NCBI GenBank assembly: GCA_031426555.1
Contig: JANPLN010000064.1
Location: forward strand, 1-64,000
Reading direction: 5' to 3'
Origin: Bdellovibrionales bacterium
GTDB taxonomy: Bacteria > Bdellovibrionota > Bdellovibrionia > Bdellovibrionales > JAGQZY01
Length of the DNA: 64,000 nucleotides
This document shows, one piece after another, positions 20,067 to 33,978 of this stretch (the first letter of the stretch is position 1; each line of letters opens with the position of its first letter). The notes beneath the pieces are model-generated. The model was given only the letters and a program-made list of their open reading frames with translations. It did not search any database and was not told the origin of the DNA. A program made the translations under genes and the position numbers.

Positions 20067-20101
20067 GGATCTATATTGGTCGTCGCCTCAAGAATCGTCA
20101 A
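20067..20101 (-). promoter_or_regulatory. Sigma70-like promoter giving a probably leaderless yicC mRNA
   Basis: TTGACG-17 nt-CAATAT-6 nt-ATG; no SD. Confidence 0.55.
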
Positions 20102-20789
20102 GGTTTTACGCTGGTTTACGTCTAAAAATCTTTGAATTTACGAAGAGCACTGTGAGTGGCGATACCCACATTGAGTCTACGAACAACTTTGTTCCTTGGG
20201 TTTCGATGAAAGGCGAACTGACCGGCGTCTCGAGCACGACAGAGAAGATTGTTTTTGAATGCGCTAACGAGTGTTGTGGCTCTCCGATTGAGTCTATCAG
20301 AGCGGCGGTCAACGCGCCATCTGGGACATAGGTTCATTCTGTTAAGCTTTATGGAACGCAAATTTGATTTTGCTGAGCTTCAAGGGATCTACCAGGCTTA
20401 ATTGGACGATGATTAGATCTACTAAACTCCATCTGCAAAGGCGAGACTGGATGCTTCGACTTCATCGACGAACCTCGGATGAGCACTCAATGCGCCGAGA
20501 TCTCCGATCAGCGGTCGCCGTGCCCCAACGTTCACGCAAAGGCTTTCAGCTATTTCTCCACTTGAGTCCATTCGCAATCACCATAGTTACCTTCAAGCAA
20601 AACTGCAGGCAGGGAAATCTGTCGTCAGCCATGAATTGCAATGACTTACTAAAATAAACCGACAGCCCTCGATCCGTCTTCAAATTCGAAGTTGAATCCG
20701 CCTATGGAAAGGTGGACTTTTATACCTTCGTTCACTTAATGTCTATCCATCGTTAGATCTCCAGCCGCTGTAAAAATAAAGGAACTCCT

Positions 20790-21392
20790 TTGCCCGCGAA
20801 AATTCACAGCCAACAAATTGATTTATTTCCCAAAAGAGCAAAATCTTATGGGGGAGTTCTACTTAAAAAGCGTGAAAACCGCTCCTACGGTCGACCCATT
20901 TCAACATCGCAAACCATGCATTTAGTTTTGCGCTCATCGCAGGCGGTGGGCGTAAAATCTTTCAAAACCCAACTGAACAAATCCGCAATCAACAAAATTC
21001 TTAACAAATTTTCTGTTAAATACGGCATTCGCATTCTTTCCCTGGCCAATGTGGGTACTCACCTGCACTTGCATATTAAAATTGCGCGAAGAGTTGGCTA
21101 TTTATGTTTTATTCGCGCTGTAACGGCCGCCATTGCCATGCACGTTTCTGGGCGCAATCGATGGACTGCAGCACTTGAAAACAAATCAGCGGCAACTACG
21201 GGTAAGACAACTTCAAAAATCTCATCGAAGACAAAATTTTGGGACTACCGCCCCATCACCAGAATCGTTGAAGGCTTACGAGCCTTTCTAAACATAAAAG
21301 ATTATATTCAAATCAATCAGCTTGAGGGGTTGGGAGTTCCAAGGCATCAGGCCCGCATTCTGTTGACCCGCGCACGACCGCAGATGTGTTAG
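20790..21392 (+). mobile_element. HUH (Y1) endonuclease, RAYT/IS200-like 'transposase'
   Basis: MHLVLRSS, NVGTHLHLHIK (HUH), FWDYRPITRIV, DYIQIN (putative catalytic Tyr); TTG start after AAAGGAA. Confidence 0.8.
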
Positions 21393-22903: not shown

Positions 22904-24040
22904 CTACAACCGACAAACGCTCTTCTTTTCTTTGCAGTCGATGAGGGTTTGGCGAAGCACCGTGGTTTTTTCGATGAGCTCGGGCTTGGTGATTTGCGAG
23001 AGGTACTTCAGCGACTTGTCCAAATCCCCGGTGCGCACTAACGAATAGGCCAACGCATAACGGATCTCATCGTCTTTTTGCAGATCACTGCGCTGGATGA
23101 CGGGATCTAACGACGCAATCAGGGAATATTTATTGGCGTCCACATAGGTGGCGATTTTCTGTTTGAGCCGTTCTTTTTCATCGACGACCGCGGCGTTGAA
23201 ATACAAAGAGCGCTCAAACCGACGCGTCTGTCGATTGAGCTCTGCTGTGTGATAATAGTATTTTCCATCGGTAATAGCAGCCCTGCGAAAGCCTTCTTCG
23301 GCAGCCATCATCAAACCTTTTTGGAAGTACACCTGCGAGATCGCCAGATTGATTTCTAAATTTGTTGGATGTTGCGCTCGAGCCATTTCTAATATCGCCA
23401 AAGCCGAAGTGGTCGCCCCACTGGTTTGAAAGATTTCAGCAATATTTAGATAATGTGTTGCGGGCGACGCATGCGTGCCCAGCCACTCCATACTCGCGAC
23501 AAGCCCTTCATGCACGAGTTTGAGTTGAAGCAATAGGGTGATCCACTCAGTTTCCACTGCGAAAGTGGGAAACACCACACGCGCCTTAGCAACAGTGGTC
23601 CAGGCCTTTTCAATTTTTCCGAGCTGTTGCTCGCAGTGGGATTTCCGCAAAGCATCCGTCTCGTTGGCATGTTTGTTTTGAAACACATTTGCATAAAAAG
23701 CCACACACTCTTTGATTTGTTTGGCAAAAAACGCGGATCGTCCCTGCCACATCAAAGCTTCCTCGGAATACGGCGACGAAGGCGGGATTTTTGCCAACTC
23801 TTGAATCGCCGTCTTCCACTCACCCTTCAAGTGATACCACTGGCCTAAAAGCACACCGGCTTCGGGCGAACTTTTCTTTTGCAGCTCTTTAATTTCTGGT
23901 TGAGCAAGATCCAACTTGCCATCTTTTAGGAGAGTGCGAACGAGCGCTGCTCCTTCCAGATCGTCGTACATGGGATCTTTAACAAATCCTTGTGCCGAGA
24001 AATTTAAAAAACAAATGACGAGAAAAAATAAAGTCTTCAT
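22904..24040 (-). CDS. Periplasmic TPR-repeat protein (TtpD-like)
   Basis: ATG 24040 overlaps tonB stop (TGATG); signal peptide; repeated TPR-like helix pairs; last gene of TonB run. Confidence 0.8.
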   Translation of the reverse strand: MKTLFFLVICFLNFSAQGFVKDPMYDDLEGAALVRTLLKDGKLDLAQPEIKELQKKSSPEAGVLLGQWYHLKGEWKTAIQELAKIPPSSPYSEEALMWQGRSAFFAKQIKECVAFYANVFQNKHANETDALRKSHCEQQLGKIEKAWTTVAKARVVFPTFAVETEWITLLLQLKLVHEGLVASMEWLGTHASPATHYLNIAEIFQTSGATTSALAILEMARAQHPTNLEINLAISQVYFQKGLMMAAEEGFRRAAITDGKYYYHTAELNRQTRRFERSLYFNAAVVDEKERLKQKIATYVDANKYSLIASLDPVIQRSDLQKDDEIRYALAYSLVRTGDLDKSLKYLSQITKPELIEKTTVLRQTLIDCKEKKSVCRL

Positions 24041-24672
24041 CAGTTCAGCTCGAATTTTATTTTTTGCGTTGTCCATGCGGCCACGATCTGACCCTTAAGC
24101 ATGGCGGGTTCGAACTTCCAGGTTTTAACCGACTTCATAGCCGCTTGCTCAAAGAAGCCTTTGGGCTCACTGTCTTCCACTTCCACATTGTCCACGGCTC
24201 CATTTGTGGCCACCAAAATTTTTAAACTCACATAGCCTGAAATACTTTTTTGCCGGGCGTCCGAGGGATATTCTAAGCTGCCCTTCATTAACAAACGCGG
24301 GGGGCGATTCACCGCTCCTCCGTCGCGAACGATAGAAGCCGCATCGGAACCAAAGCCGCCGCCGCCGCCAACCGCTGGTCCAAAACCACCCGAACCAAAC
24401 GCCACGCCCGAGCCAAAATCCTGGGGACCCGAAAATGAATCAGGGGCCAGAGTCGAAAGCAGACTGGCCTCCTTGGGCGAGGGCGGAGGCTCTGGCGGTT
24501 CTTCCTGCTTTGCAGGTTCGGCCATTTGAATGGCGATGGGAGGTGGGCCATCTTCGATGGGGGGCTTGAGATCCGCTGGATTCCACGCCATGAAGCTTGC
24601 CACCAGGGAAAACACTGTTAACCCCGTTAGAGCGATACCGAAGAATGTGATCCAAAACTTTTTTGTTTTCAT
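24040..24672 (-). CDS. tonB: Energy transducer TonB
   Basis: N-terminal TM, Pro-rich linker, YPSDARQKSISGYV...FEQAAMKSVKTWKFEPA. Confidence 0.93.
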   Translation of the reverse strand: MKTKKFWITFFGIALTGLTVFSLVASFMAWNPADLKPPIEDGPPPIAIQMAEPAKQEEPPEPPPSPKEASLLSTLAPDSFSGPQDFGSGVAFGSGGFGPAVGGGGGFGSDAASIVRDGGAVNRPPRLLMKGSLEYPSDARQKSISGYVSLKILVATNGAVDNVEVEDSEPKGFFEQAAMKSVKTWKFEPAMLKGQIVAAWTTQKIKFELN

Positions 24673-25518
24673 TTATACCTTGATCAAAGCTCCAAACAAT
24701 CCCGCAACAAGAACGAGAATGAGACCCAAAAATAAAAGTGGACTCCAGTCCGCCAATTTTTCCATGAAGCCCGCTTCGCGCTGAATTTTCGCAGCCTTAT
24801 TTAAAGATTCGAAGATGTAAAGATTCAGCGAAGTACGGGTTGGCGCCTGCGTCGCCTCGAGAGCCTTGAGCAAACCTTCACCATCTGGCCCCAAAACAAA
24901 GTGCGCGTCTTTCGTAGAGCCAATGGCAGCCACGCGACCCACGCGAGTGATTGTGCCTTCCGTGAGGTTGCCACTGAGGTCAAGAAAACTCCCAGGAAAC
25001 GCCTCCACTTGCGTGGATGAGGCTAATAAATCCGCAGCTTGATCTATCACTTTATCAAAATGTTCAAACTTAAGGTCTTCCGGCGCTTCAGTCTCTGTGC
25101 CTTTTGCTTGCTGTTCAAAACGCAGTCCGCGCTCAAACTCCTTCACCGACGCATTGGCTTTTTTGAAGGTGTTCTCTAAAGAGGAGCCTTTTTTTTGCAG
25201 ATCTTTCTTGCGCTTATCAAGACTCAACAAAAGTTCGTGATCTTCGTCGTTTCGCGAGGTTTGTGCCACCAGTTCCTTTTGCAAAGATTGCGTTTTTGCT
25301 TTGGCTGTTCCAATGCGCTCTTGGAAGTTTTGCAACATGGTTGCTTTTTGTTTTTGTAACGCCTGTTTCTGAGACGTCATGTAAACATACTCCCGCTGGA
25401 ACGATTTGTTTAAAGTGTCCTCCGCTGTTTCAGGTGGGCGAACTTCGTCTGCGAAGGCCGAAAGTGCCAACGTCGAAAGTGCCAACAAAGTAAAAGTCAT
25501 TAAAAGATACTTTTTCAT
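24673..25518 (-). CDS. TtpC-like periplasmic coiled-coil protein with a single C-terminal TM (no MotA/ExbB domain)
   Basis: Signal peptide, long coiled coil, GNLTEGTITRVGRVAAI, ends after GFMEKL...one TM; lies between DUF3450 and tonB. Confidence 0.65.
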   Translation of the reverse strand: MKKYLLMTFTLLALSTLALSAFADEVRPPETAEDTLNKSFQREYVYMTSQKQALQKQKATMLQNFQERIGTAKAKTQSLQKELVAQTSRNDEDHELLLSLDKRKKDLQKKGSSLENTFKKANASVKEFERGLRFEQQAKGTETEAPEDLKFEHFDKVIDQAADLLASSTQVEAFPGSFLDLSGNLTEGTITRVGRVAAIGSTKDAHFVLGPDGEGLLKALEATQAPTRTSLNLYIFESLNKAAKIQREAGFMEKLADWSPLLFLGLILVLVAGLFGALIKV

Positions 25519-26273
25519 AAACTGGCTCCCAACTGGCGAGAATCAATGGGCAGCTGATAATAACCAGCCCCATTTTTGTTTTTTAGATTTTTCACAAGCG
25601 AAAGAATAGATGTTTGATCTTCGCTGGACTCCACGTCTTTCCACTTCCAAACGCCCGCCTCTTTGACAGCTTTTAAAACATTTTTATCGGGAGTCACGAC
25701 GAACAGACTTTGTAAGCCAAGGCGCGCCACTTCACATTTTCTAAGAGTTCCGTTCAAAGTGATATCCACAACCTTGTACTCATTGGACTGGGCAAGCTTC
25801 ATTTCGTTTTCGACAAAACTCCAAAAGTCCGCAAAAATAAACTCAAGAGGCTCTTGCGCTTTTTGCACACGGATTTTTAAATTTTTTATTTGCGCCTGGC
25901 GGGACTCTTGCAAAAATGGAATCGTCGCAGCCACCGACACCTCAAAGCGCTCGATCCAGGAAAGAATCTTTTTTTGCGATTGTGGATCTGTCTTGGCCTG
26001 AATTTTCACTCTCGACTCGAGACGCTTGGTTTTTTCGGCAAGCTGAAGTGCGCGCAACTGTTCCTTTTGCACTTGCGATTCAAGCTCTGTTTTACGCTGC
26101 GTCCATTGTTCGAGGTCCGCTTGTTTTTCTCTCTGCAAGGAATCGATCTCTTGGCTGAGTGTCTCAACCTCGGTGCGGGTTTGTGTGAGTCGTCCCACAA
26201 AGTCTTCCCACGTGGACGCATGGGCCGAGAGTGAGATGCCTATTAGAACTAAAAGAAATATGATTTTAAACAT
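25515..26273 (-). CDS. DUF3450 family protein (TtpB-like)
   Basis: Signal peptide, coiled coil, IPFLQESRQAQI, VARLGLQSLFVVTPD, YQLPI; GAGGAG SD. Confidence 0.85.
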   Translation of the reverse strand: MFKIIFLLVLIGISLSAHASTWEDFVGRLTQTRTEVETLSQEIDSLQREKQADLEQWTQRKTELESQVQKEQLRALQLAEKTKRLESRVKIQAKTDPQSQKKILSWIERFEVSVAATIPFLQESRQAQIKNLKIRVQKAQEPLEFIFADFWSFVENEMKLAQSNEYKVVDITLNGTLRKCEVARLGLQSLFVVTPDKNVLKAVKEAGVWKWKDVESSEDQTSILSLVKNLKNKNGAGYYQLPIDSRQLGASL

Positions 26274-26281
26274 TGTACTCC

Positions 26282-26692
26282 TCACGGATTCACCGGTTTG
26301 TCTGTGGTCACAGCAAAATTCTTAACACCTGCGGATTTGACCCAGTCTAAAACTTTAATCACTTGCCCGTAGGGAAGATCGCGGTCGGCAATAACCACCG
26401 CTTGCACGTCGGGATTGCGTTCCACTTCTTCGCGGGTGAGGCGTTTTGTACCCTCTTCATCTGCGTCTTCGTTATTGATCTGAACCTGGCCGTCCGCCGT
26501 GATCGCAACGTTAAGAAGGCTTGGGGTGGTTTCGTCGCCCGAAGAAGCTTCTGGCAAATTGACGTCCACACTGGGCTTAATCAGGGCGGGCGCGGTCACC
26601 ATAAAAATAATCAAGACCACTAAAATAATATCGATCAACGGCACCATGTTGATTTCGCAAATTGTGTCTGATCCACCTGCTTTTGCGGCCAT
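26282..26692 (-). CDS. exbD: ExbD/TolR
   Basis: EINMVPLIDIILVVLIIFMVTAP; IADRDLPYGQVIKVLD. Confidence 0.95.
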   Translation of the reverse strand: MAAKAGGSDTICEINMVPLIDIILVVLIIFMVTAPALIKPSVDVNLPEASSGDETTPSLLNVAITADGQVQINNEDADEEGTKRLTREEVERNPDVQAVVIADRDLPYGQVIKVLDWVKSAGVKNFAVTTDKPVNP

Positions 26693-26693
26693 T

Positions 26694-27320
26694 TTAGAAC
26701 CCCTTCATTTTTCCGTAAGCGATCATGATATCTTTGCAGCTTTCAACACTGCCGATGATCGCTTTCACTTGTTTTTGAAAATAGTTAAAAGCCACGATGT
26801 TTGGAATGGCCACCAAGAGGCCTGCCGCTGTGGCAATCAAGGCCGCAGAAATTCCCGACATCACCGTTTGCTGACCGGCATTGGTGCTATTTGCCAGATC
26901 GTGAAACGACTTCATGATCCCCAACACAGTTCCAAACAATCCGATGTAGGGAGCGTTTGATCCTACCGTGGCCAAAAACGCCAACGACTGTTCAAGCTTT
27001 GGTTGTTGAAACTTGATAAAGGTATCAAAAGTTTCGGAAAGCCCTTTGAGACCATTTTGTTTGAGATGCTCGAACCCATAAGTCATCACACGCCCCTCAA
27101 GCGACGTAGGATCCAGCTTCACATCTTCGAGGTTGGAAATCTTAACCTGCGACATGGCCTCTTCAAGAATTTCTCGTTGCTGCGCGCTCTGTTTCGCGAG
27201 TTTATTGAGCTTCAGGTAGCGCTCTACAATCAAACCAAGACTCACAAACGTCAAAGCTATCAATAGATACAAGACGCCTTGGTCGGCATAGTGGGCGATG
27301 GCAAAAATTCTATCCTTCAT
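26694..27320 (-). CDS. exbB: ExbB/TolQ/MotA proton channel
   Basis: LATVGSNAPYIGLFGTVLGIMKSF; GISAALIATAAGLLVAIP. Confidence 0.95.
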   Translation of the reverse strand: MKDRIFAIAHYADQGVLYLLIALTFVSLGLIVERYLKLNKLAKQSAQQREILEEAMSQVKISNLEDVKLDPTSLEGRVMTYGFEHLKQNGLKGLSETFDTFIKFQQPKLEQSLAFLATVGSNAPYIGLFGTVLGIMKSFHDLANSTNAGQQTVMSGISAALIATAAGLLVAIPNIVAFNYFQKQVKAIIGSVESCKDIMIAYGKMKGF

Positions 27321-28090
27321 GGGTTCTCCTGCTGCAAAACGGTTTGCAATCTTTGGATTAAAGCATTTATTTTTTTAATTTCGTCGTCGTCTTGGGAATT
27401 TTTCAAATGAGATTCTAGCAAAGCCATAGGAGTCTCATCGAGGGCGTTTGGTTGCGATGCTTTGGTTTTTGTAAGTCCAAAGACTTCATCTTTCCAACCA
27501 ATCACTTCTTTAAGGATGAGCGGTGCTTTATTCTTTTTGTTTGAAAAATCCAATTTTTTAATTAAAAACGTAAGCACGGTTTCACCCTGCTCGTTAAACA
27601 GATTTGGATCAGCACCTGCTTCGATGGCAGCCATCACATTCGGACTCGACGAAAGCGACGCGACCGCAGTCCACATTTCGGCTTGAATTTTAGGAAATTG
27701 GTTTTCATCGAGCAAAAATTGAATTTTTTTGTCGTTATTCTCAGAAGCATAATCAAAAGCCGTCTTTTGAGAGGTATCCACCAAAGTTCGATCGGCTCCA
27801 CTTTGCAAAAGTTGATAAACAAAAAGAGCCTTCTTATTTCGCGCAGCTTCGATTAAAAAAGTGCGCTCCTCTTTCAAGCGAATATTTATATTCGTCAACA
27901 ATGGAAGAGTGCTCGCGAACACCTTGTTATCCCCGTTGACGATGGCGAGCAGCATCACTTCCTCCTGCGTGCCCGCTTTATCGCCCTGCTTCCCATTCCC
28001 CGTATTGGAAAACCCATAGCTTGAAGACTCGTGCTTTCCGCAAGCTGCAAGGGCCAGGCAAAATGCAAACATAAAAAAGACTTTGATCAA
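27317..28090 (-). CDS. Ankyrin-repeat lipoprotein
   Basis: Lipobox LALAAC; LLQSGADRTLVDTSQKTAFDYA and IEAGADPNLFNEQGETVL; overlaps both neighbours by 4 bp. Confidence 0.8.
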   Translation of the reverse strand: MIKVFFMFAFCLALAACGKHESSSYGFSNTGNGKQGDKAGTQEEVMLLAIVNGDNKVFASTLPLLTNINIRLKEERTFLIEAARNKKALFVYQLLQSGADRTLVDTSQKTAFDYASENNDKKIQFLLDENQFPKIQAEMWTAVASLSSSPNVMAAIEAGADPNLFNEQGETVLTFLIKKLDFSNKKNKAPLILKEVIGWKDEVFGLTKTKASQPNALDETPMALLESHLKNSQDDDEIKKINALIQRLQTVLQQENP

Positions 28091-31000
28091 AAGACAGCCC
28101 CCATTACTACACCAAAGATTCGTCCTCGACGAAGCGAGCGAACCATTTCGTCGCCTTGAGTGGATTCGACTTCAGGATTTAACAGGTTTCGAGCACGCAA
28201 GCTCATGGTCCAACGATCGCCAATGCGTTTGGTGGCAACGAAGTCCAATTGCTCAAAAGGCTGCTCGTAGGTGTCTGGGATACTGTTGGTACCAACTTCG
28301 GTAATGCGTTTGCCGATCACATTGTAAAGCAATGTTGTGGTCAATCCCCACTGGGGGCGATCGTACTGCAATTGCATGTTTATAACATAGGGCGACTGCC
28401 CCTGAAGTGGGCGCGAGCTCGAAGTCTGTGTGCCCTTGTTTTGGGCGCTAAGTTCAATCTCGGAATTGATGTAGGTAAGATTCGAGAGCACCGTCCATCG
28501 TCGGAGCGGTCGAGAAAAATGCCGTAGCCCAACCCGGCCCTCGAACTCCACTCCGTAATTTTGCGCGGCCTTCGCATTATCAAACGTTTGAATGCGATTC
28601 ACGCCTGGCAGAAAGAGGATTTCGATGGGGTTTTCGAACTCTTTGTAAAAGAGGCCAACGGATGCGTACTCATCGGCGGTAAAGTAATATTCCCAGCGAT
28701 GATCGATATTTTTTATCACTGTCCCTTTAAGATTGGCATTTCCTTGTACTATATTTCCCGTTTCATCGTCGATAAAACCCACTGTCGACATTTCGCGAAA
28801 GTCCGGCCGAGCTAGCGTCTCACTGTAAGTGATGCGTGCACGAATTTTTTCCGTGGGCTTCCAAACCACTCCATAGGATGGGAGAATGTCATTCATTTCG
28901 ATGGTCGAAAAAGATGTGGCATTCACTCGATCGAAATACTTAAAGGTATTGACGATCTGTTCAGAGCTTTCCCGGCGAACACCGGCAATGAACGTCCAAG
29001 AGCTTAACGGAGAAAAATCCACCATGGCAAATTGGGCTTGGGTCTTTTGTGTTCCTACGTAGCTGTCCGCATCGTTAGTTAAGTTTTTAAGCGTTACTGT
29101 ACCGTTTTTAATATTTTCGTCGCTGAGCAGTTTATCGGCAGAGCTTTTATCCGCTCCCGACGTATTGCCGCTTTCAAAATAAAAACGATTCACATCGGAC
29201 GTTCGCTTTTTATCAACACCCAAGAAGCCCATTTTAAATTTTAAAAAATCCTCACCCTCGCGTTGAATGGGGACAGTTAAATTTAAAGCGACTTCTTGGC
29301 TTTCGTCGAACAATTCGCTGTAAACACGTCGATTGCCCGACTGGTTATCGAGAAGTGTTTTAGTGTCATTGAGTTTTAGATACGCCAATTCCATGCGCCC
29401 TGGATTGTCGCGCTCGGCATCAGCCCAGCCTAAGCGCCAATCCAACTGAATTGGTGTTTCAGCAACCTTAAAAAGTTCGTGCTCGCCTTTAAAGTGACGC
29501 GTCCACAACTGGCGCTCGGTAAAATCCGCAGTCATGGATTCAACATCGGGGCTGCCGACAGTTGTTGTGTTGTCGATCTGAGTGAGCTTTGTGGTGTTTC
29601 TTAAAAGAAACGTGTTGGCGATCAGTCGATGATTTTTACCAAGCTCTAATCCGAATTCGTAACTACCTGCCACACGAGTTTCAATTTCTGAATACTCAGA
29701 GCTGCGAACAGTATCTTCAACAAGCTTGTTTCCCGGGCCGACGTTGAAAGTTTTTGTGGTGCGCTCGAGTTGATCGGTGTTTTGCCCGTACATTAAGCTG
29801 CCCGAGGAGCCCAGTTTGTAACGACCCAACTTCCAGCCGCTCCCCATGGAGAGAGCAAGGCCAGGAAGGGAAGGATTGCTATTGCGAGAAAAATCGTAGT
29901 TTTGTGGAAGACTCAGACCCATTTGCACAAGGTCTTGCTGTGAAACTCCACCATCAAAACCCACTGTATTGGGCTCTAGCTTTTTTCCCTGCGCCAAAGT
30001 ACTTTGAATCACAGCGGGAAGTTTTCGATAGCCGTCATCAAAGCCCAACCAGTCTGTGCTACCTCCCTGATGTTCCAAACGATTGTTGACGTTTTCGTAC
30101 GCCATACTCACGTTGCCGCGAAAAAAGAATTTCTCGGGAAGACTGCGTGTTTTTAGCTGGATGATGCCCCCGCCGAATTCGCCCGGTAGATCTGGCGAAT
30201 AACTTTTTTGCACTACGATGCTTTCCATGATGGACGTGGGAAATAAATCCAAAGGAACAACTCGTCGAGCCGGTTCTGGGCTCGGTAACGAAAAGCCATT
30301 CATTTGCACGCCCGAATAGCGTTCACCCAGGCCGCGAACATAGACATACTTTCCACCGATGAGTGTGAGTCCTGTCACTCGCCGCAAAGATGCCGCAGCG
30401 TCGCTGTCTCCTGCGCGAGCCATTTGTTCGGCTCCTAAAACGTCCGTCACCGCAGAGCTCTGTTTACGAATCTCCACAAGAGCTGACAGACTGCCTTTGA
30501 TTTTTGGCGCCAGCACAACCACTTCTTCCAATTCATTTTGTTCGGCCTTCATTTCTAAACTTAACGGCTCCGTGTTTGCTGCAACCTCGATATCAGCCAT
30601 GGTTTTGGTTTGATAGTTGGGATGAAAGACGCTCATCGAGTAGCGACCTTCGGGGATCTGCGCCGTTAAGCGCCCTTCGGCATCGGTTTTAAAAACTTTA
30701 TCGAGACCGGAAAATAACACCGTCGCGTCCACAATGGGGCGCTGTTCGCGGCTGGCCACCTGGATCTTAAATTCTCTGGGAGTCTTCGTAACATCCGTTG
30801 CTTGTTGGGAAGCTTGTGGAGAATTTACTTCCGCTTGCGAGTCGCGGCTTTCTAATAAATTGACTGTGATTTGTACCTCTTCGTCGGCGACGACAGTTAC
30901 ATCAACATCTTGTCCACTGGGAACAATTTCTATTTTTTGCCGTTTTGCTGGAAGTGTAGCAGAGATAACGCCCGAAGAATCTGTGGTCAAAACACCGTTT

Positions 31001-31200
31001 AGTGTTTTCACAACAATACCTTCAGCAGGAAGCCCGTCTTTAAAAACGACGATAAGAACCTGACCTGTTTTTTCGTTTTTCTTTGAATTTTCAATTTTTA
31101 ATTCTAATTCGTTACTAGCAGCAAATGCAGAAAAAGGGCCTGCGACGCAGGCCCCTAGTGTAACAACATTAACTAAGAAGAATACTTTGTTAAACAACAT
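28087..31200 (-). CDS. TonB-dependent receptor with N-terminal Ig/carboxypeptidase-regulatory-like domains
   Basis: LEEVVV TonB-box region; plug GKYVYVRGLGERYS...LPSPEPARRVVPLDLFP; ARNLLN; C-terminal F. Confidence 0.95.
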   Translation of the reverse strand: MLFNKVFFLVNVVTLGACVAGPFSAFAASNELELKIENSKKNEKTGQVLIVVFKDGLPAEGIVVKTLNGVLTTDSSGVISATLPAKRQKIEIVPSGQDVDVTVVADEEVQITVNLLESRDSQAEVNSPQASQQATDVTKTPREFKIQVASREQRPIVDATVLFSGLDKVFKTDAEGRLTAQIPEGRYSMSVFHPNYQTKTMADIEVAANTEPLSLEMKAEQNELEEVVVLAPKIKGSLSALVEIRKQSSAVTDVLGAEQMARAGDSDAAASLRRVTGLTLIGGKYVYVRGLGERYSGVQMNGFSLPSPEPARRVVPLDLFPTSIMESIVVQKSYSPDLPGEFGGGIIQLKTRSLPEKFFFRGNVSMAYENVNNRLEHQGGSTDWLGFDDGYRKLPAVIQSTLAQGKKLEPNTVGFDGGVSQQDLVQMGLSLPQNYDFSRNSNPSLPGLALSMGSGWKLGRYKLGSSGSLMYGQNTDQLERTTKTFNVGPGNKLVEDTVRSSEYSEIETRVAGSYEFGLELGKNHRLIANTFLLRNTTKLTQIDNTTTVGSPDVESMTADFTERQLWTRHFKGEHELFKVAETPIQLDWRLGWADAERDNPGRMELAYLKLNDTKTLLDNQSGNRRVYSELFDESQEVALNLTVPIQREGEDFLKFKMGFLGVDKKRTSDVNRFYFESGNTSGADKSSADKLLSDENIKNGTVTLKNLTNDADSYVGTQKTQAQFAMVDFSPLSSWTFIAGVRRESSEQIVNTFKYFDRVNATSFSTIEMNDILPSYGVVWKPTEKIRARITYSETLARPDFREMSTVGFIDDETGNIVQGNANLKGTVIKNIDHRWEYYFTADEYASVGLFYKEFENPIEILFLPGVNRIQTFDNAKAAQNYGVEFEGRVGLRHFSRPLRRWTVLSNLTYINSEIELSAQNKGTQTSSSRPLQGQSPYVINMQLQYDRPQWGLTTTLLYNVIGKRITEVGTNSIPDTYEQPFEQLDFVATKRIGDRWTMSLRARNLLNPEVESTQGDEMVRSLRRGRIFGVVMGAVF

Positions 31201-31204
31201 CTAA

Positions 31205-32545
31205 TTATTTTACAATCCAACCTTCGGTCCAATCGTTTTCAACTGGGCTAAAAGCACCTACGTAATCAACACCATCAAATTCGAAATTCCCAGGAAGAAC
31301 GTCTTCCGGAGGTGTCATCCCTGTATCGAGAGCTGCGCTGCCATCAGTAGGCATTGCTCCATCAAGAATCTTATCTGAGGCAAGCATCACAAAGTTATTG
31401 CGATTGGCTTCATTAAACCACTTCGTAATCGACCAAAGATCTTTCGCTGCATCTTCAAGAATGCTTACGTTATCGCACTGAAGAATTGAGTTTTGCATCA
31501 CAAGACCTGTCTGTTGAACAGTTTCACCGTTAGCAACTCCACCATTTTTGAAAGTCTCTTCGTCATCGATATTGAAGCAATTTTGAAAGCTGCCGGTAAC
31601 AATGGCGTTATAAATTTGAACGCCAGTTCCACGACGAAGCATAATACCATTGAGAAGTTTTGCATTGCTGCCCTTGGCAACGATAGTCACGTTGCTCAAC
31701 ACTGGGTTGGAACGCGGGGATGCTGCATTGTTATCTTTAAAGTTATCAGCTTCGATTCCGTTTGGATCTTTTTCTGAAGCATTTTCAAGAACGATATAAA
31801 TGTACTGAGCGGCGCCAGTCCAACCTTGATCCCAGTCAAAACCATCATCATCGTTATCAATAGATACAACATACTTAAGATTTACAGTTCCACCGAAAAG
31901 CTCGATTCCATCATCGGCACCTTTGTACGCTTCGATATTTTCAACAACAGTTCCACGACCAACACCGTAGAAAGTAATGGCATTTAATTCGCTGTCTGTA
32001 CCGAATGTGTACCCAGCGTACTCAACGCGCATGTACTGAATGGAACCAGAACTGTCGTCATCATTGGATCCACCATATTTTGGCGCTTGATCAGAGGCGA
32101 CGCCTTCGATGAAGCCTTCGCAAACAGCGGCGCTGCAATTATTAATACGAGCATTGCCTGTGATAACAACGCCACCCCAGTAGCCAGCTGCTGGATTCAC
32201 ACGCTCAAGAGCTGTAAAAACAACTGGTTTGTTTTGGGTACCGTTGACGAAAATTTTTGAATCGCGAGTGATTGTAATAAATGATTGCGGCGATCCGTAA
32301 ACAACTGTGCCAGCCTCAAGAGTGAGAGTGGAAGTGTCTTTTTTATCGCCACCGATGCGAACATCGCCTTTTAGAACCCATGCCGTATCAGGTGTAAGTA
32401 CTAGGTTTGTATTGAGGTAACTGCCCTCTACAAAACAAATGGACTTACCGTCAACTTGGCCGGCTCCCTCAGTAGTACCTGCTGGGCAGGCATAAACATT
32501 CGCAAGACCTAAAAGGCTCGCTGTAACAAAACTCATTAATTTCAT
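31205..32545 (-). CDS. Secreted acidic protein with probable parallel beta-helix repeats (receptor partner)
   Basis: GAGGAG SD; signal peptide; WGGVVITGNA, SSGSIQYMRVEYAG, DDGIELFGGTV, DDDGFDWDQGWTG, NGIEAD, YVGAF...WTEGW. Confidence 0.85.
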   Translation of the reverse strand: MKLMSFVTASLLGLANVYACPAGTTEGAGQVDGKSICFVEGSYLNTNLVLTPDTAWVLKGDVRIGGDKKDTSTLTLEAGTVVYGSPQSFITITRDSKIFVNGTQNKPVVFTALERVNPAAGYWGGVVITGNARINNCSAAVCEGFIEGVASDQAPKYGGSNDDDSSGSIQYMRVEYAGYTFGTDSELNAITFYGVGRGTVVENIEAYKGADDGIELFGGTVNLKYVVSIDNDDDGFDWDQGWTGAAQYIYIVLENASEKDPNGIEADNFKDNNAASPRSNPVLSNVTIVAKGSNAKLLNGIMLRRGTGVQIYNAIVTGSFQNCFNIDDEETFKNGGVANGETVQQTGLVMQNSILQCDNVSILEDAAKDLWSITKWFNEANRNNFVMLASDKILDGAMPTDGSAALDTGMTPPEDVLPGNFEFDGVDYVGAFSPVENDWTEGWIVK

Positions 32546-32637
32546 AGAAAAACTCCTCGTTTTGCCTATCAGCTTGCGCTTTCGGCGTTAAGTGGTTCCC
32601 TTTTGGGATTTGAGCGGCACTTATCTCTGGGTCTCCC

Positions 32638-32760
32638 GTAGAAGTAAAATGAAGAAGCTGTTAGGAAAAATTATTAACAAAAAACTATTTGACTCGTATA
32701 GTTAATTACATGGTATTCAAGAGCTTTGTTGGTTTTGTGTCAGTTTTGAGTCAGGGAATT
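32638..32760. promoter_or_regulatory. Pho-box-like 11-bp direct repeats in the divergent region
   Basis: Plus strand GTTG/GTCA/GTCA at 32728/32739/32750; minus strand CCTAAC/CTTCAT/TTCTAC at 32660/32649/32638. Confidence 0.45.
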
Positions 32761-32763
32761 ATT

Positions 32764-33978
32764 GTGAGAGTTTCGACAAACAAAAGATGCTTATTTTTTA
32801 TCCTTATATTGGTTTCCGCGCGCGCTCGTTCGGAGGCACTTGTTTTGCCAACGATGGATTATGGAAGTGAAGGCTTCGTTGTAAAACACGAACCAAGTCA
32901 TTTTACAATGGCAACCCGTTTTCGCATTCAAACCCGCGCGACCTATGAAGACTACGACACAGAAAGTACCACCCAGGATGTTACAGACTTGCAAGTGCGA
33001 CGCATGCGACTGCGTTTTGATGGTTCCGCTTTAGATCCACGTTTTATTTATAAGATCCAACTGTCCTTTACCCGCGGTGATATGGATTACGATAATACCG
33101 ACTACCCGAATGTTCTTCGCGATGCCGCCGTTGGCTGGAAACTTTTTGACGAAGACAGTTTTAAAAGTACCTTGTGGTTTGGACAAACAAAACTCCCCGG
33201 TAACCGCCAGCGGGTCGTTTCCTCTGGGGACCAAGAACTCGTGGATCGCTCACTCCTCAACGCCACTTTCAACATTGATCGGGATATGGGAGTTCAATGG
33301 TATAACAAACTTGGCGAAGCAAGACCCTTCTGGCTCAAATTTGCAATGAGTAACGGCGAAGGCCGCGCCAATAACAACAGCAATACAGGCTTAGCGTACA
33401 CGGCCCGCGCTGAGTGGCTGCCCCTGGGCGCCTTCACCGACGGCGGAGACTACTTCGAAGGCGATCTGGCCCGTGAACGGTCGGCCAAACTTTCATTGGG
33501 AGTCAGCTATCAATCCAATCGCAAAACCAATCGTGTTGGCGGCCAAACTGGAAAAACCTTTGTGCCTGGTGTAACCACAGACATAGAAACATTGCTGGCT
33601 GATTTTTTACTGAAATACAATGGTTGGGCTTTCAGCGCCGAATACGCCAACCGTCAAACGGATAATCCTTTGATTACGCTCTCCTCTGGACCCGATGCCG
33701 TGTTCAAAGGCTCGGGGTACAACGCTCAACTCAGTTATGTTTTCACCAAAAAGTGGTCGCCCGTCGTGCGCTACACTCACGTTCGACCCCACGACGCGAT
33801 TTTGAACTTCGAAAACGAAAAGACCCAATATACCTTAGGGCTCACCAAATACCTCAACCATCACAAAATAAAAATCATGGGCGACATTACTTTCGAAGAC
33901 GAAAAAGAACGAACGTCCACGGCCAGCGCCAACATGAACAACTGGATCGCGCGTTTGCAATTGGAATTTGGTATCTAA
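32764..33978 (+). CDS. OprO/OprP-type phosphate-selective porin
   Basis: RRMRLRFDG, LRDA, GQTKLPGNRQRVVSS, LVDRS, C-terminal RLQLEFGI; GTG 32764 gives a signal peptide (start uncertain). Confidence 0.85.
   Translation: MRVSTNKRCLFFILILVSARARSEALVLPTMDYGSEGFVVKHEPSHFTMATRFRIQTRATYEDYDTESTTQDVTDLQVRRMRLRFDGSALDPRFIYKIQLSFTRGDMDYDNTDYPNVLRDAAVGWKLFDEDSFKSTLWFGQTKLPGNRQRVVSSGDQELVDRSLLNATFNIDRDMGVQWYNKLGEARPFWLKFAMSNGEGRANNNSNTGLAYTARAEWLPLGAFTDGGDYFEGDLARERSAKLSLGVSYQSNRKTNRVGGQTGKTFVPGVTTDIETLLADFLLKYNGWAFSAEYANRQTDNPLITLSSGPDAVFKGSGYNAQLSYVFTKKWSPVVRYTHVRPHDAILNFENEKTQYTLGLTKYLNHHKIKIMGDITFEDEKERTSTASANMNNWIARLQLEFGI

Follow-up and report, generated by a model that had tools for sequence, protein, structure and literature searches.

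A phosphate-linked ElpS/PUSIV-type receptor and beta-helix pair with an apparently hybrid TonB motor in a Bdellovibrionales genome

What does a bacterium take up through an operon in which a TonB-dependent receptor and a secreted beta-helix protein are combined with a TonB motor of their own, next to a phosphate-type porin? The question is raised by positions 22,904 to 33,978 of the window analyzed here, i.e. the first 64,000 nucleotides of contig JANPLN010000064.1 (assembly GCA_031426555.1), from the 3.14 Mb, 100% complete genome of a Bdellovibrionales bacterium. The operon is best explained as a PhoB-controlled, TonB-dependent importer of a metal-bridged phosphorus compound, a reading to which a probability of about 0.58 was assigned. 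Scavenging of a phosphorus source is likely because other bacteria induce this type of transporter and partner when short of phosphate: strong induction by phosphate depletion was reported both for ElpS of Caulobacter crescentus (PMC2996285) and for the Flavobacterium johnsoniae pair Fjoh_0545/0546 (PMC8115612). The core formed by receptor and partner is already known, and the distinctive part of the locus is its motor.

A preliminary description of this DNA had proposed ten open reading frames (ORFs), nine of them coupled on the minus strand and divergent from an OprO/P porin. All ten were found where they had been placed, and the arrangement was confirmed by ORF coordinates, gaps and Pfam assignments. 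Read from the beta-helix gene down to tonB, the intergenic distances are +4, -4, -4, +1, -4, -4 and 0 bp. The longest ORF of the TPR gene reaches 37 bp into tonB, and a start at the ATG on the tonB stop would reduce this overlap to 1 bp; the resulting length of 378 aa matches that found in a relative (L119). Over the locus, Pfam returned TPR, TonB_C, DUF3450 (1e-17), ExbD, MotA_ExbB, Ank_2, a TonB barrel and plug with a CarboxypepD-like domain, and Porin_O_P (3e-16). Only exbB, exbD and tonB have close paralogues in the genome, and the other locus genes have none. The features are:

31205..32545, minus strand: ElpS-type beta-helix partner, 446 aa, PF28492, with a secretion signal and no canonical lipobox
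28087..31200, minus strand: TonB-dependent receptor, 1037 aa, with an N-terminal CarboxypepD-like extension (Pfam), of the Caulobacter-type elpS-neighbour receptor family
27317..28090, minus strand: ankyrin-repeat protein (Ank_2), 257 aa, with an LAAC lipobox
26694..27320, minus strand: ExbB of the canonical ExbB/TolQ type (Pfam, tree)
26282..26692, minus strand: ExbD of the canonical type (Pfam, tree placement as for ExbB)
25515..26285, minus strand: DUF3450 protein, TtpB-like, 256 aa (Pfam; described in PMC6957404)
24673..25518, minus strand: short TtpC, 281 aa, with a signal, a 100-residue helix, a beta domain and one C-terminal membrane helix (alignment, model)
24040..24672, minus strand: TonB, 210 aa (Pfam)
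22904..24040, minus strand: TtpD-like TPR protein, probably 378 aa with its start at the ATG on the tonB stop (the longest ORF begins at 24076)
32649..32666, minus strand: proximal Pho-box-like direct repeat of 11-bp period, facing the operon (11.8 bits; position kept in relatives)
32739..32756, minus strand: distal Pho-box-like repeat, also operon-facing, lying just upstream of the probable porin start (10.8 bits)
32764..33978, plus strand: divergent OprO/P-family porin, PF07396, from a likely GTG start (longest ORF from 32689)

The beta-helix partner was assigned to PF28492 (Beta_helix_4), with 943 of 7999 scored candidates being homologues, the closest named ones labelled as Bdellovibrionaceae or Bdellovibrionales bacteria. 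ElpS, Fjoh_0546 and BT4056 have been described as a single linked family, with the pair adjacent in 621 genera (10.1101/2023.03.17.533168), and membership was argued here via proxies from the same genus or family as CC0170, Fjoh_0546 and BT4056. Against a Caulobacter-genus lipoprotein with an LAGC lipobox, the partner shows 36% identity over 308 aa (E 2e-49); the gene of that lipoprotein sits in the elp-receptor-gspCDEF layout published for elpS in Caulobacter (PMC2996285), and its neighbouring receptor shares 30% identity with the window receptor over 870 columns (E 1e-102). Local identities of 32-44% were found to Flavobacteriaceae proteins in receptor loci, some of which also hold phoBR or oprP. 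Of the genomes scanned, 90 of 121 from Caulobacterales and 75 of 81 from Flavobacteriaceae encode the partner family. Ten single-domain loci were sampled from Caulobacterales, all with the receptor directly downstream and seven with gspC-D-E-F next; among 20 Flavobacteriaceae loci, selected on score and size of genome, the pair was found in 18, a clear divergent phoB in six and oprP in four. At least 51 of 69 named loci, which are the best hits among the matches listed, hold a homologue of the window receptor. The statement that the architecture was undescribed had to be given up: the pair is published, and the cluster named PUSIV unites oprP, phoR, phoB, the receptor and a beta-helix lipoprotein (PMC8115612).

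In the ElpS (CC0170)/CC0171 (CCNA_00170) pair of C. crescentus, as in the window, a beta-helix family protein directly precedes the same receptor family in a phosphate-starvation context (PMC2996285). ElpS, however, is described there as anchored to the surface by lipid and encoded next to genes of type II secretion, whereas the window partner has no canonical lipobox, linker or adjacent gsp genes, and its locus adds a private six-gene motor and an ankyrin lipoprotein. Similarly, PUSIV of F. johnsoniae is a phosphate cluster that combines a CarboxypepD-like receptor with a partner of pectin-lyase fold and an OprP porin (Fjoh_0542 OprP, PhoR, PhoB, the receptor Fjoh_0545 and Fjoh_0546, "FII"; PMC8115612); in contrast, phoBR lies elsewhere in the window genome, the PUSIV partner is a lipoprotein, and no Ttp motor figures in the main description of PUSIV. 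BT4055/BT4056 of Bacteroides thetaiotaomicron is the same receptor-lid pair, with a weakly predicted docking on the receptor (10.1101/2023.03.17.533168), but the BT4056 lid is a lipoprotein, and the description consulted includes neither the motor nor a Bdellovibrionota variant. Because its partner is devoid of a lipoprotein anchor motif, the locus was counted as a variant: by sequence it is a member of the ElpS/PUSIV-type family, distinct in its anchor and with the motor as a new part. A precedent for phosphate-induced complexes of receptor and surface protein importing organophosphorus is provided by PusCD1/PusCD2 (10.64898/2026.09.03.749221); these are described as SusC/SusD pairs, unlike the beta-helix partner of the window, where no protein matched SusC or SusD models at E 0.01 or better.

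Five Alteromonadales loci (L053, L054, L063, L067, L069) showed the order phoB-phoR-pstS-(2OG-Fe oxygenase)-partner-receptor-(TonB2-type motor); their partners contain two or three copies of the beta-helix module (915-1382 aa).

In order to evaluate phosphate control, a direct-repeat matrix learned unsupervised from the pstS promoters of 11 other genomes was used, the genome's own pstS and one mis-started locus being excluded. Among 2771 upstream regions, own pstS ranked 2, a DUF4956/VTC operon 9 and the window operon 22; when only the six other-genus promoters were used, the ranks were 5, 32 and 17, respectively. Considering homologous promoters with upstream DNA (two dropped), 17 of 19 scored above the 95th percentile (15 of 19 with the stricter matrix), as did 9 of 12 additional ones. 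At the level of gene neighbourhood, a clear phoB, pst or ppk was found in 18 of the 69 named loci, against a rough chance estimate of 2-3%; the phosphate neighbours checked over cut-offs were five PhoB, one PstC and one PstS, while seven further loci with a sub-cut-off PhoB-like regulator were not counted among the 18 and one was rejected. A Na/Pi cotransporter lies upstream in four relatives. The genome encodes pstSCAB, phoU-phoB-phoR, ppk, PhoX and PhoD, and searches of it for PhoA and phytase gave no match. From the promoter repeat and its conservation we infer that the operon would be under PhoB activation. Together with the reported induction of homologues, these data uphold the proposal that a dedicated receptor, partner and energiser are tied to phosphate starvation.

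The same matrix pointed to other genes. Five of its six top-ranked genes lack a Pfam assignment above cut-off, four of them seem to be secreted, and they are candidate members of the phosphate regulon; those five (L163-L167) are located at G000 C47:22203, C54:30440-31447, C8:15482-15958, C59:59742-60578 and C37:2106-2924. The rank-9 repeat heads an operon of DUF4956, membrane-fusion-like, unknown and VTC-domain genes (L169:4704-8323, G000 C30). The VTC domain points to polyphosphate metabolism.

The porin itself was assigned to PF07396 (59.9 bits against a cut-off of 20.9) and probably starts at GTG 32764 (404 aa) rather than TTG 32689, relatives being 391-397 aa long. Its linkage is sporadic. 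It was adjacent in 6 of 34 Bdellovibrionota loci, several of which are ended by the contig (divergent in five same-genus genomes and upstream in one other), and with two queries it was near none of the 69 named loci among the matches listed; in four other relatives a Na/Pi cotransporter takes its place. A repeat facing the porin scored 15-16 bits in three congeners and -0.2 here, and Flavobacterium OprP (Fjoh_0542) was reported as not induced (PMC8115612). The tight coupling to the porin that had been proposed was thus not sustained, and the porin was rejected as a fixed part of the system; it is a recurrent, replaceable phosphate neighbour and probably no core part.

The model of the partner is a right-handed beta-helix (pLDDT 91). 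Among solved folds it comes closest to tailspikes, epimerases and pectate lyases (a generic match, Z 21-23), including Pel9A (Z 21.4, rmsd 3.3, 287 aligned residues); sequence searches of solved structures found no relative of partner or receptor, and Foldseek at E 0.001 no match for the partner or the short TtpC. In the 73 partners aligned, eight acidic residues (E186, D211, D212, E215, D233, D234, D237 and E265) are invariant in all rows and account for every invariant polar residue, while no basic residue is invariant (the best kept, R304, is present in 61 of 73 rows). The net charge of the mature partner is -30. In Pel9A, a lyase of family PL9, calcium is bound by Asp209, Asp233 and Asp237, with Lys273 as the catalytic base (PMC10992409). 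The spacing of D211/D212/D233/D234/D237 resembles that of the three Pel9A aspartates, as judged from spacing without residue-level superposition, and the partner has no invariant Lys. Because the Asp spacing is Pel9A-like but the lysine is not conserved, the partner is predicted to carry a putative metal site without lyase chemistry.

These folds are also what would be expected if the module took up a glycan or an iron complex unrelated to phosphorus, the beta-helix being a polysaccharide lyase or binder and the porin a chance neighbour. The sporadic porin link would agree with this, as would the glycan binding proposed from modelling by Lidbury et al. Yet there is no invariant Lys or Arg to act as lyase base, the pstS-type repeat is kept upstream across relatives, and ElpS was described as responding to phosphate, not iron (PMC2996285), so that this explanation was judged the most improbable of those weighed.

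The acidic site bears more closely on another alternative, according to which the system is phosphate-regulated but handles metal, the beta-helix binding calcium or iron in order to strip metal from mineral or complexed phosphate, or to supply cofactors to PhoX/PhoD-type phosphatases. PhoX and PhoD need metals, and both are encoded in a genome with no PhoA or phytase match. The exclusively acidic invariant polar residues and the charge of the mature protein fit such a role, and overexpression of ElpS was reported to raise phosphatase activity although ElpS is no phosphatase (PMC2996285). On the other hand, an energised 22-strand receptor would be costly for a small cation, the PhoX and PhoD genes are unlinked to the locus and have no top-ranked box, and the loci adjoin phosphate transport genes (pst, Na/Pi) more than phosphatases. 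Metal handling was accordingly considered rather unlikely, though the strongest competitor of phosphorus import.

How the partner is anchored sets this group apart. By motif inspection, a canonical lipobox occurs in 1 of 17 Bdellovibrionota partners versus 9 of 10 Caulobacterales partners. All 17 Bdellovibrionota partners have Cys-Pro after an Ala-rich signal end, a motif found inside the Caulobacter domain too, after its linker. An apparently invariant C20 was discarded as a shared lipid site, the aligner having placed the lipobox Cys of other phyla on the Cys-Pro of this group. From these motifs the partner would be a soluble secreted protein. The genome encodes type II secretion homologues, none adjacent to the locus. 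In one genome (G022, L117:7602-8956) the partner gene is split, by decay or assembly error.

Since the partner has no lipobox (16 of 17 Bdellovibrionota rows), some route and tether would be needed, and the receptor and motor might then export the beta-helix protein itself, or a different polymer, or place it on the surface, which would make the Ttp motor an engine of export or assembly. ElpS was reported to reach the Caulobacter surface independently of the type II system (PMC2996285), and the TonB3 systems, as described, have no known import role. This direction of transport is nevertheless improbable: many loci hold the pair without any Ttp motor (DUF3450 was found in 14 of the 69 named loci among the matches listed), the receptor plug and barrel are ordinary, and Vibrio TonB2, with the same accessory proteins, is described as driving import (PMC6957404).

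Docking of the partner on the receptor was examined by structure prediction. A model of the receptor barrel (357-1037) with partner residues 20-338 scored 0.57, compared with 0.00 for the best control, with contacts agreeing at 86% or more and partner pLDDT of at least 84. The score mark was reached by 116 of 157 solved pairs and 2 of 215 mismatched pairs; scores above it up to 0.60 comprised 18 solved pairs and both mismatches. Binding of the 446-aa partner to the receptor, as had been suggested for multimer prediction, is weakly supported by the model, which came without an interface. For BT4055/4056, Price et al. reported an outer-face model of similarly weak support. The correlation between partner and receptor distances (r 0.86) was set aside as evidence because shared ancestry explains it.

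The motor had been taken for a TonB2/TonB3 energiser set. Systems of this kind in Vibrio and Teredinibacter are described as six proteins, TtpB, TtpC, ExbB, ExbD and TonB together with TtpD (PMC6957404, PMC10734418), and like them the window operon holds a DUF3450/TtpB protein, a TtpC N-terminal domain, TonB, a TPR protein and the receptor. Pfam identified TtpB (DUF3450), TonB and a TPR-type TtpD at the locus. Unlike in those systems, TtpC has no ExbB-like membrane domain, canonical exbB and exbD stand before ttpB, and control appears Pho-like rather than iron-like. With a truncated TtpC and ExbB/ExbD of another lineage, the original designation does not fit; the label "TtpC-like" holds for the N-terminal part of TtpC, and the 281-aa protein is only that part plus one membrane helix.

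The short TtpC aligns to the TtpC N-terminal domain and stops after the first membrane helix, with no PF01618; its model (pLDDT 86, pTM 0.56) consists of the 100-residue helix, the beta domain and one terminal helix. Full forms have three membrane helices, with PF01618 in the Alteromonas form tested, and Vibrio TtpC has a topology with a C-terminal MotA/ExbB membrane domain. A sequencing error was rejected as the cause: related genomes have the same short end, and all 43 short TtpC homologues found are 159-319 aa long, though lengths up to 492 aa were searched; except for one stray match they have no Pfam family. Outside Bdellovibrionota, a lead from the Atlas (274-aa cluster, score 0.90, mostly Pseudomonadota) suggests that the short form may also occur. 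In genome G474 the short TtpC gene is broken (L182:7121-7690), by decay or assembly error.

Two motor layouts were distinguished among the 34 Bdellovibrionota loci. The standard one (19/34) runs partner, ttpB, full TtpC (428-483 aa), small exbB, exbD, tonB, TPR and receptor (past the contig end in one case); the window type (15/34, from four families) has exbB-exbD-ttpB-ttpC-tonB-TPR with a short TtpC, broken in one. The order ttpB-ttpC-exbB-exbD-tonB-ttpD is thus kept in 19 of the 34 loci and not in the window, and TonB2/3 gene order was seen next to this pair in Alteromonas and Myxococcota as well. In both layouts the ankyrin protein follows the receptor in most loci. Trees separated the channel proteins along the same line. 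The window ExbB fell with C49 (98/89) and C30, two paralogues of the same genome, and outside the TonB2-type clade (98/94), and this placement agreed in all 10 short-form rows tested; in a quick ExbD tree, 15 of 15 short-form loci fell with canonical paralogues and 19 of 19 standard loci with the TonB2 type (split support 99). ExbB and ExbD therefore appear to have been swapped for canonical versions; because both trees are unrooted and gave long-branch warnings, the order of events in such a replacement is derived from the wider spread of the full form. A conserved TtpC without the channel-like domain is informative because all six Vibrio TonB2 proteins were reported as essential (PMC6957404). 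Literature searches, mostly outside subscription papers and supplements, returned no account of a TtpC truncation and none of this system from Bdellovibrionota.

A second, far more canonical DUF3450/TtpC cluster (E ~1e-85) occurs in many relatives (G007, G008, G011, G012 and others), and was not found in the window genome or its genus.

Phosphorus import, the preferred explanation, would then proceed as follows. Under phosphate starvation PhoB would switch the operon on, and the unlipidated partner would be exported, possibly via the type II system of the genome, and dock on the receptor. At the outer face of the latter it would capture a phosphorus-containing solute, probably via bound calcium, i.e. 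by metal-bridged binding rather than lyase chemistry. A hybrid motor may power uptake, with an ordinary ExbB/ExbD channel driving TonB and the short TtpC, TtpB and TPR protein forming a periplasmic scaffold. Phosphate would next be released and imported by periplasmic PhoX/PhoD and PstSCAB, and the porin could provide a parallel, loosely linked route for free phosphate.

Several observations weigh against this scheme. Expected Pho genes were missed by the repeat (PhoX rank 219, PhoD 2537, ppk 2239), 51 of the 69 named loci have no clear phosphate gene, and many of the other 18 are kin (Alteromonadales). The all-acidic site, with its net charge of -30, would suit metal no less than phosphate as cargo. 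Cut chains were used for the complex model, a barrel without plug and partner residues 20-338, with no interface returned, and the outer-face position is a proposal. Regarding the family, no cargo has been shown for any member. Deletion of elpS was reported to leave phosphatase activity unchanged, and purified ElpS not to be a phosphatase (PMC2996285); mutants in BT4055/4056 were described as having no clear phenotype in 519 experiments (10.1101/2023.03.17.533168), and the function of Pus3/Pus4 was called hard to predict (10.64898/2026.09.03.749221).

The partner was found in 22 of 41 near relatives but in only 25 of 301 genomes of the phylum, and in none of 18 genomes of one well-sampled genus of the same order; TtpC N-domain matches occurred in 21 genomes, all among the 25 that bear the partner. 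A general role in predators was rejected on these numbers, with only 25 of 301 genomes carrying the system.

Regarding the rest of the window, Rfam returned one tRNA only, with no riboswitch in the long operon leader, and generic scans for promoters and terminators matched the numbers expected by chance (12 vs. 11.9 and 15 vs. 15.7, respectively). No RNA run was listed, which is evidence in neither direction. At its end the leader (32546-32648, ~100 nt) has a G+C-rich, apparently hairpin-forming stretch, which follows a conserved AGATAAG block and differs among congeners. A 200-aa ORF with an HLHL motif (20790-21392), presumably resembling REP-associated tyrosine transposases, had no Pfam or NCBIfam match and no notable flanking repeats. 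The ~700 bp between yicC and this transposase-like ORF (20070-20780) hold doubtful short ORFs only, with no Rfam match.

In its most specific form, which is tentative, the scheme describes a hybrid TonB motor, in which TtpC, having lost its proton-channel domain, is a single-pass, periplasm-spanning strut and an ordinary ExbB/ExbD pair has assumed the role of channel, driving an unlipidated, calcium-loaded lid for the capture of metal-bridged phosphorus, for example polyphosphate or nucleotide polymers. If true, TtpB, TtpC and TtpD would be a separable scaffold needed by this receptor class, the ExbB-like domain of TtpC would serve only as a TonB2-type channel subunit, and hundreds of genera would share the uptake route. 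In two model bacteria the ElpS-type pair ranks with the surface systems that phosphate induces most strongly; it is found in hundreds of genera, and its cargo is not solved by this locus. What the locus contributes is a conserved TtpC without ExbB-like domain, always accompanied by canonical ExbB/ExbD, which separates scaffold from channel in TonB2/3 motors. It also bears on how a partner that has no lipid anchor gets to the receptor and is retained there, and a soluble member of the partner family would be easier to purify for ligand work.

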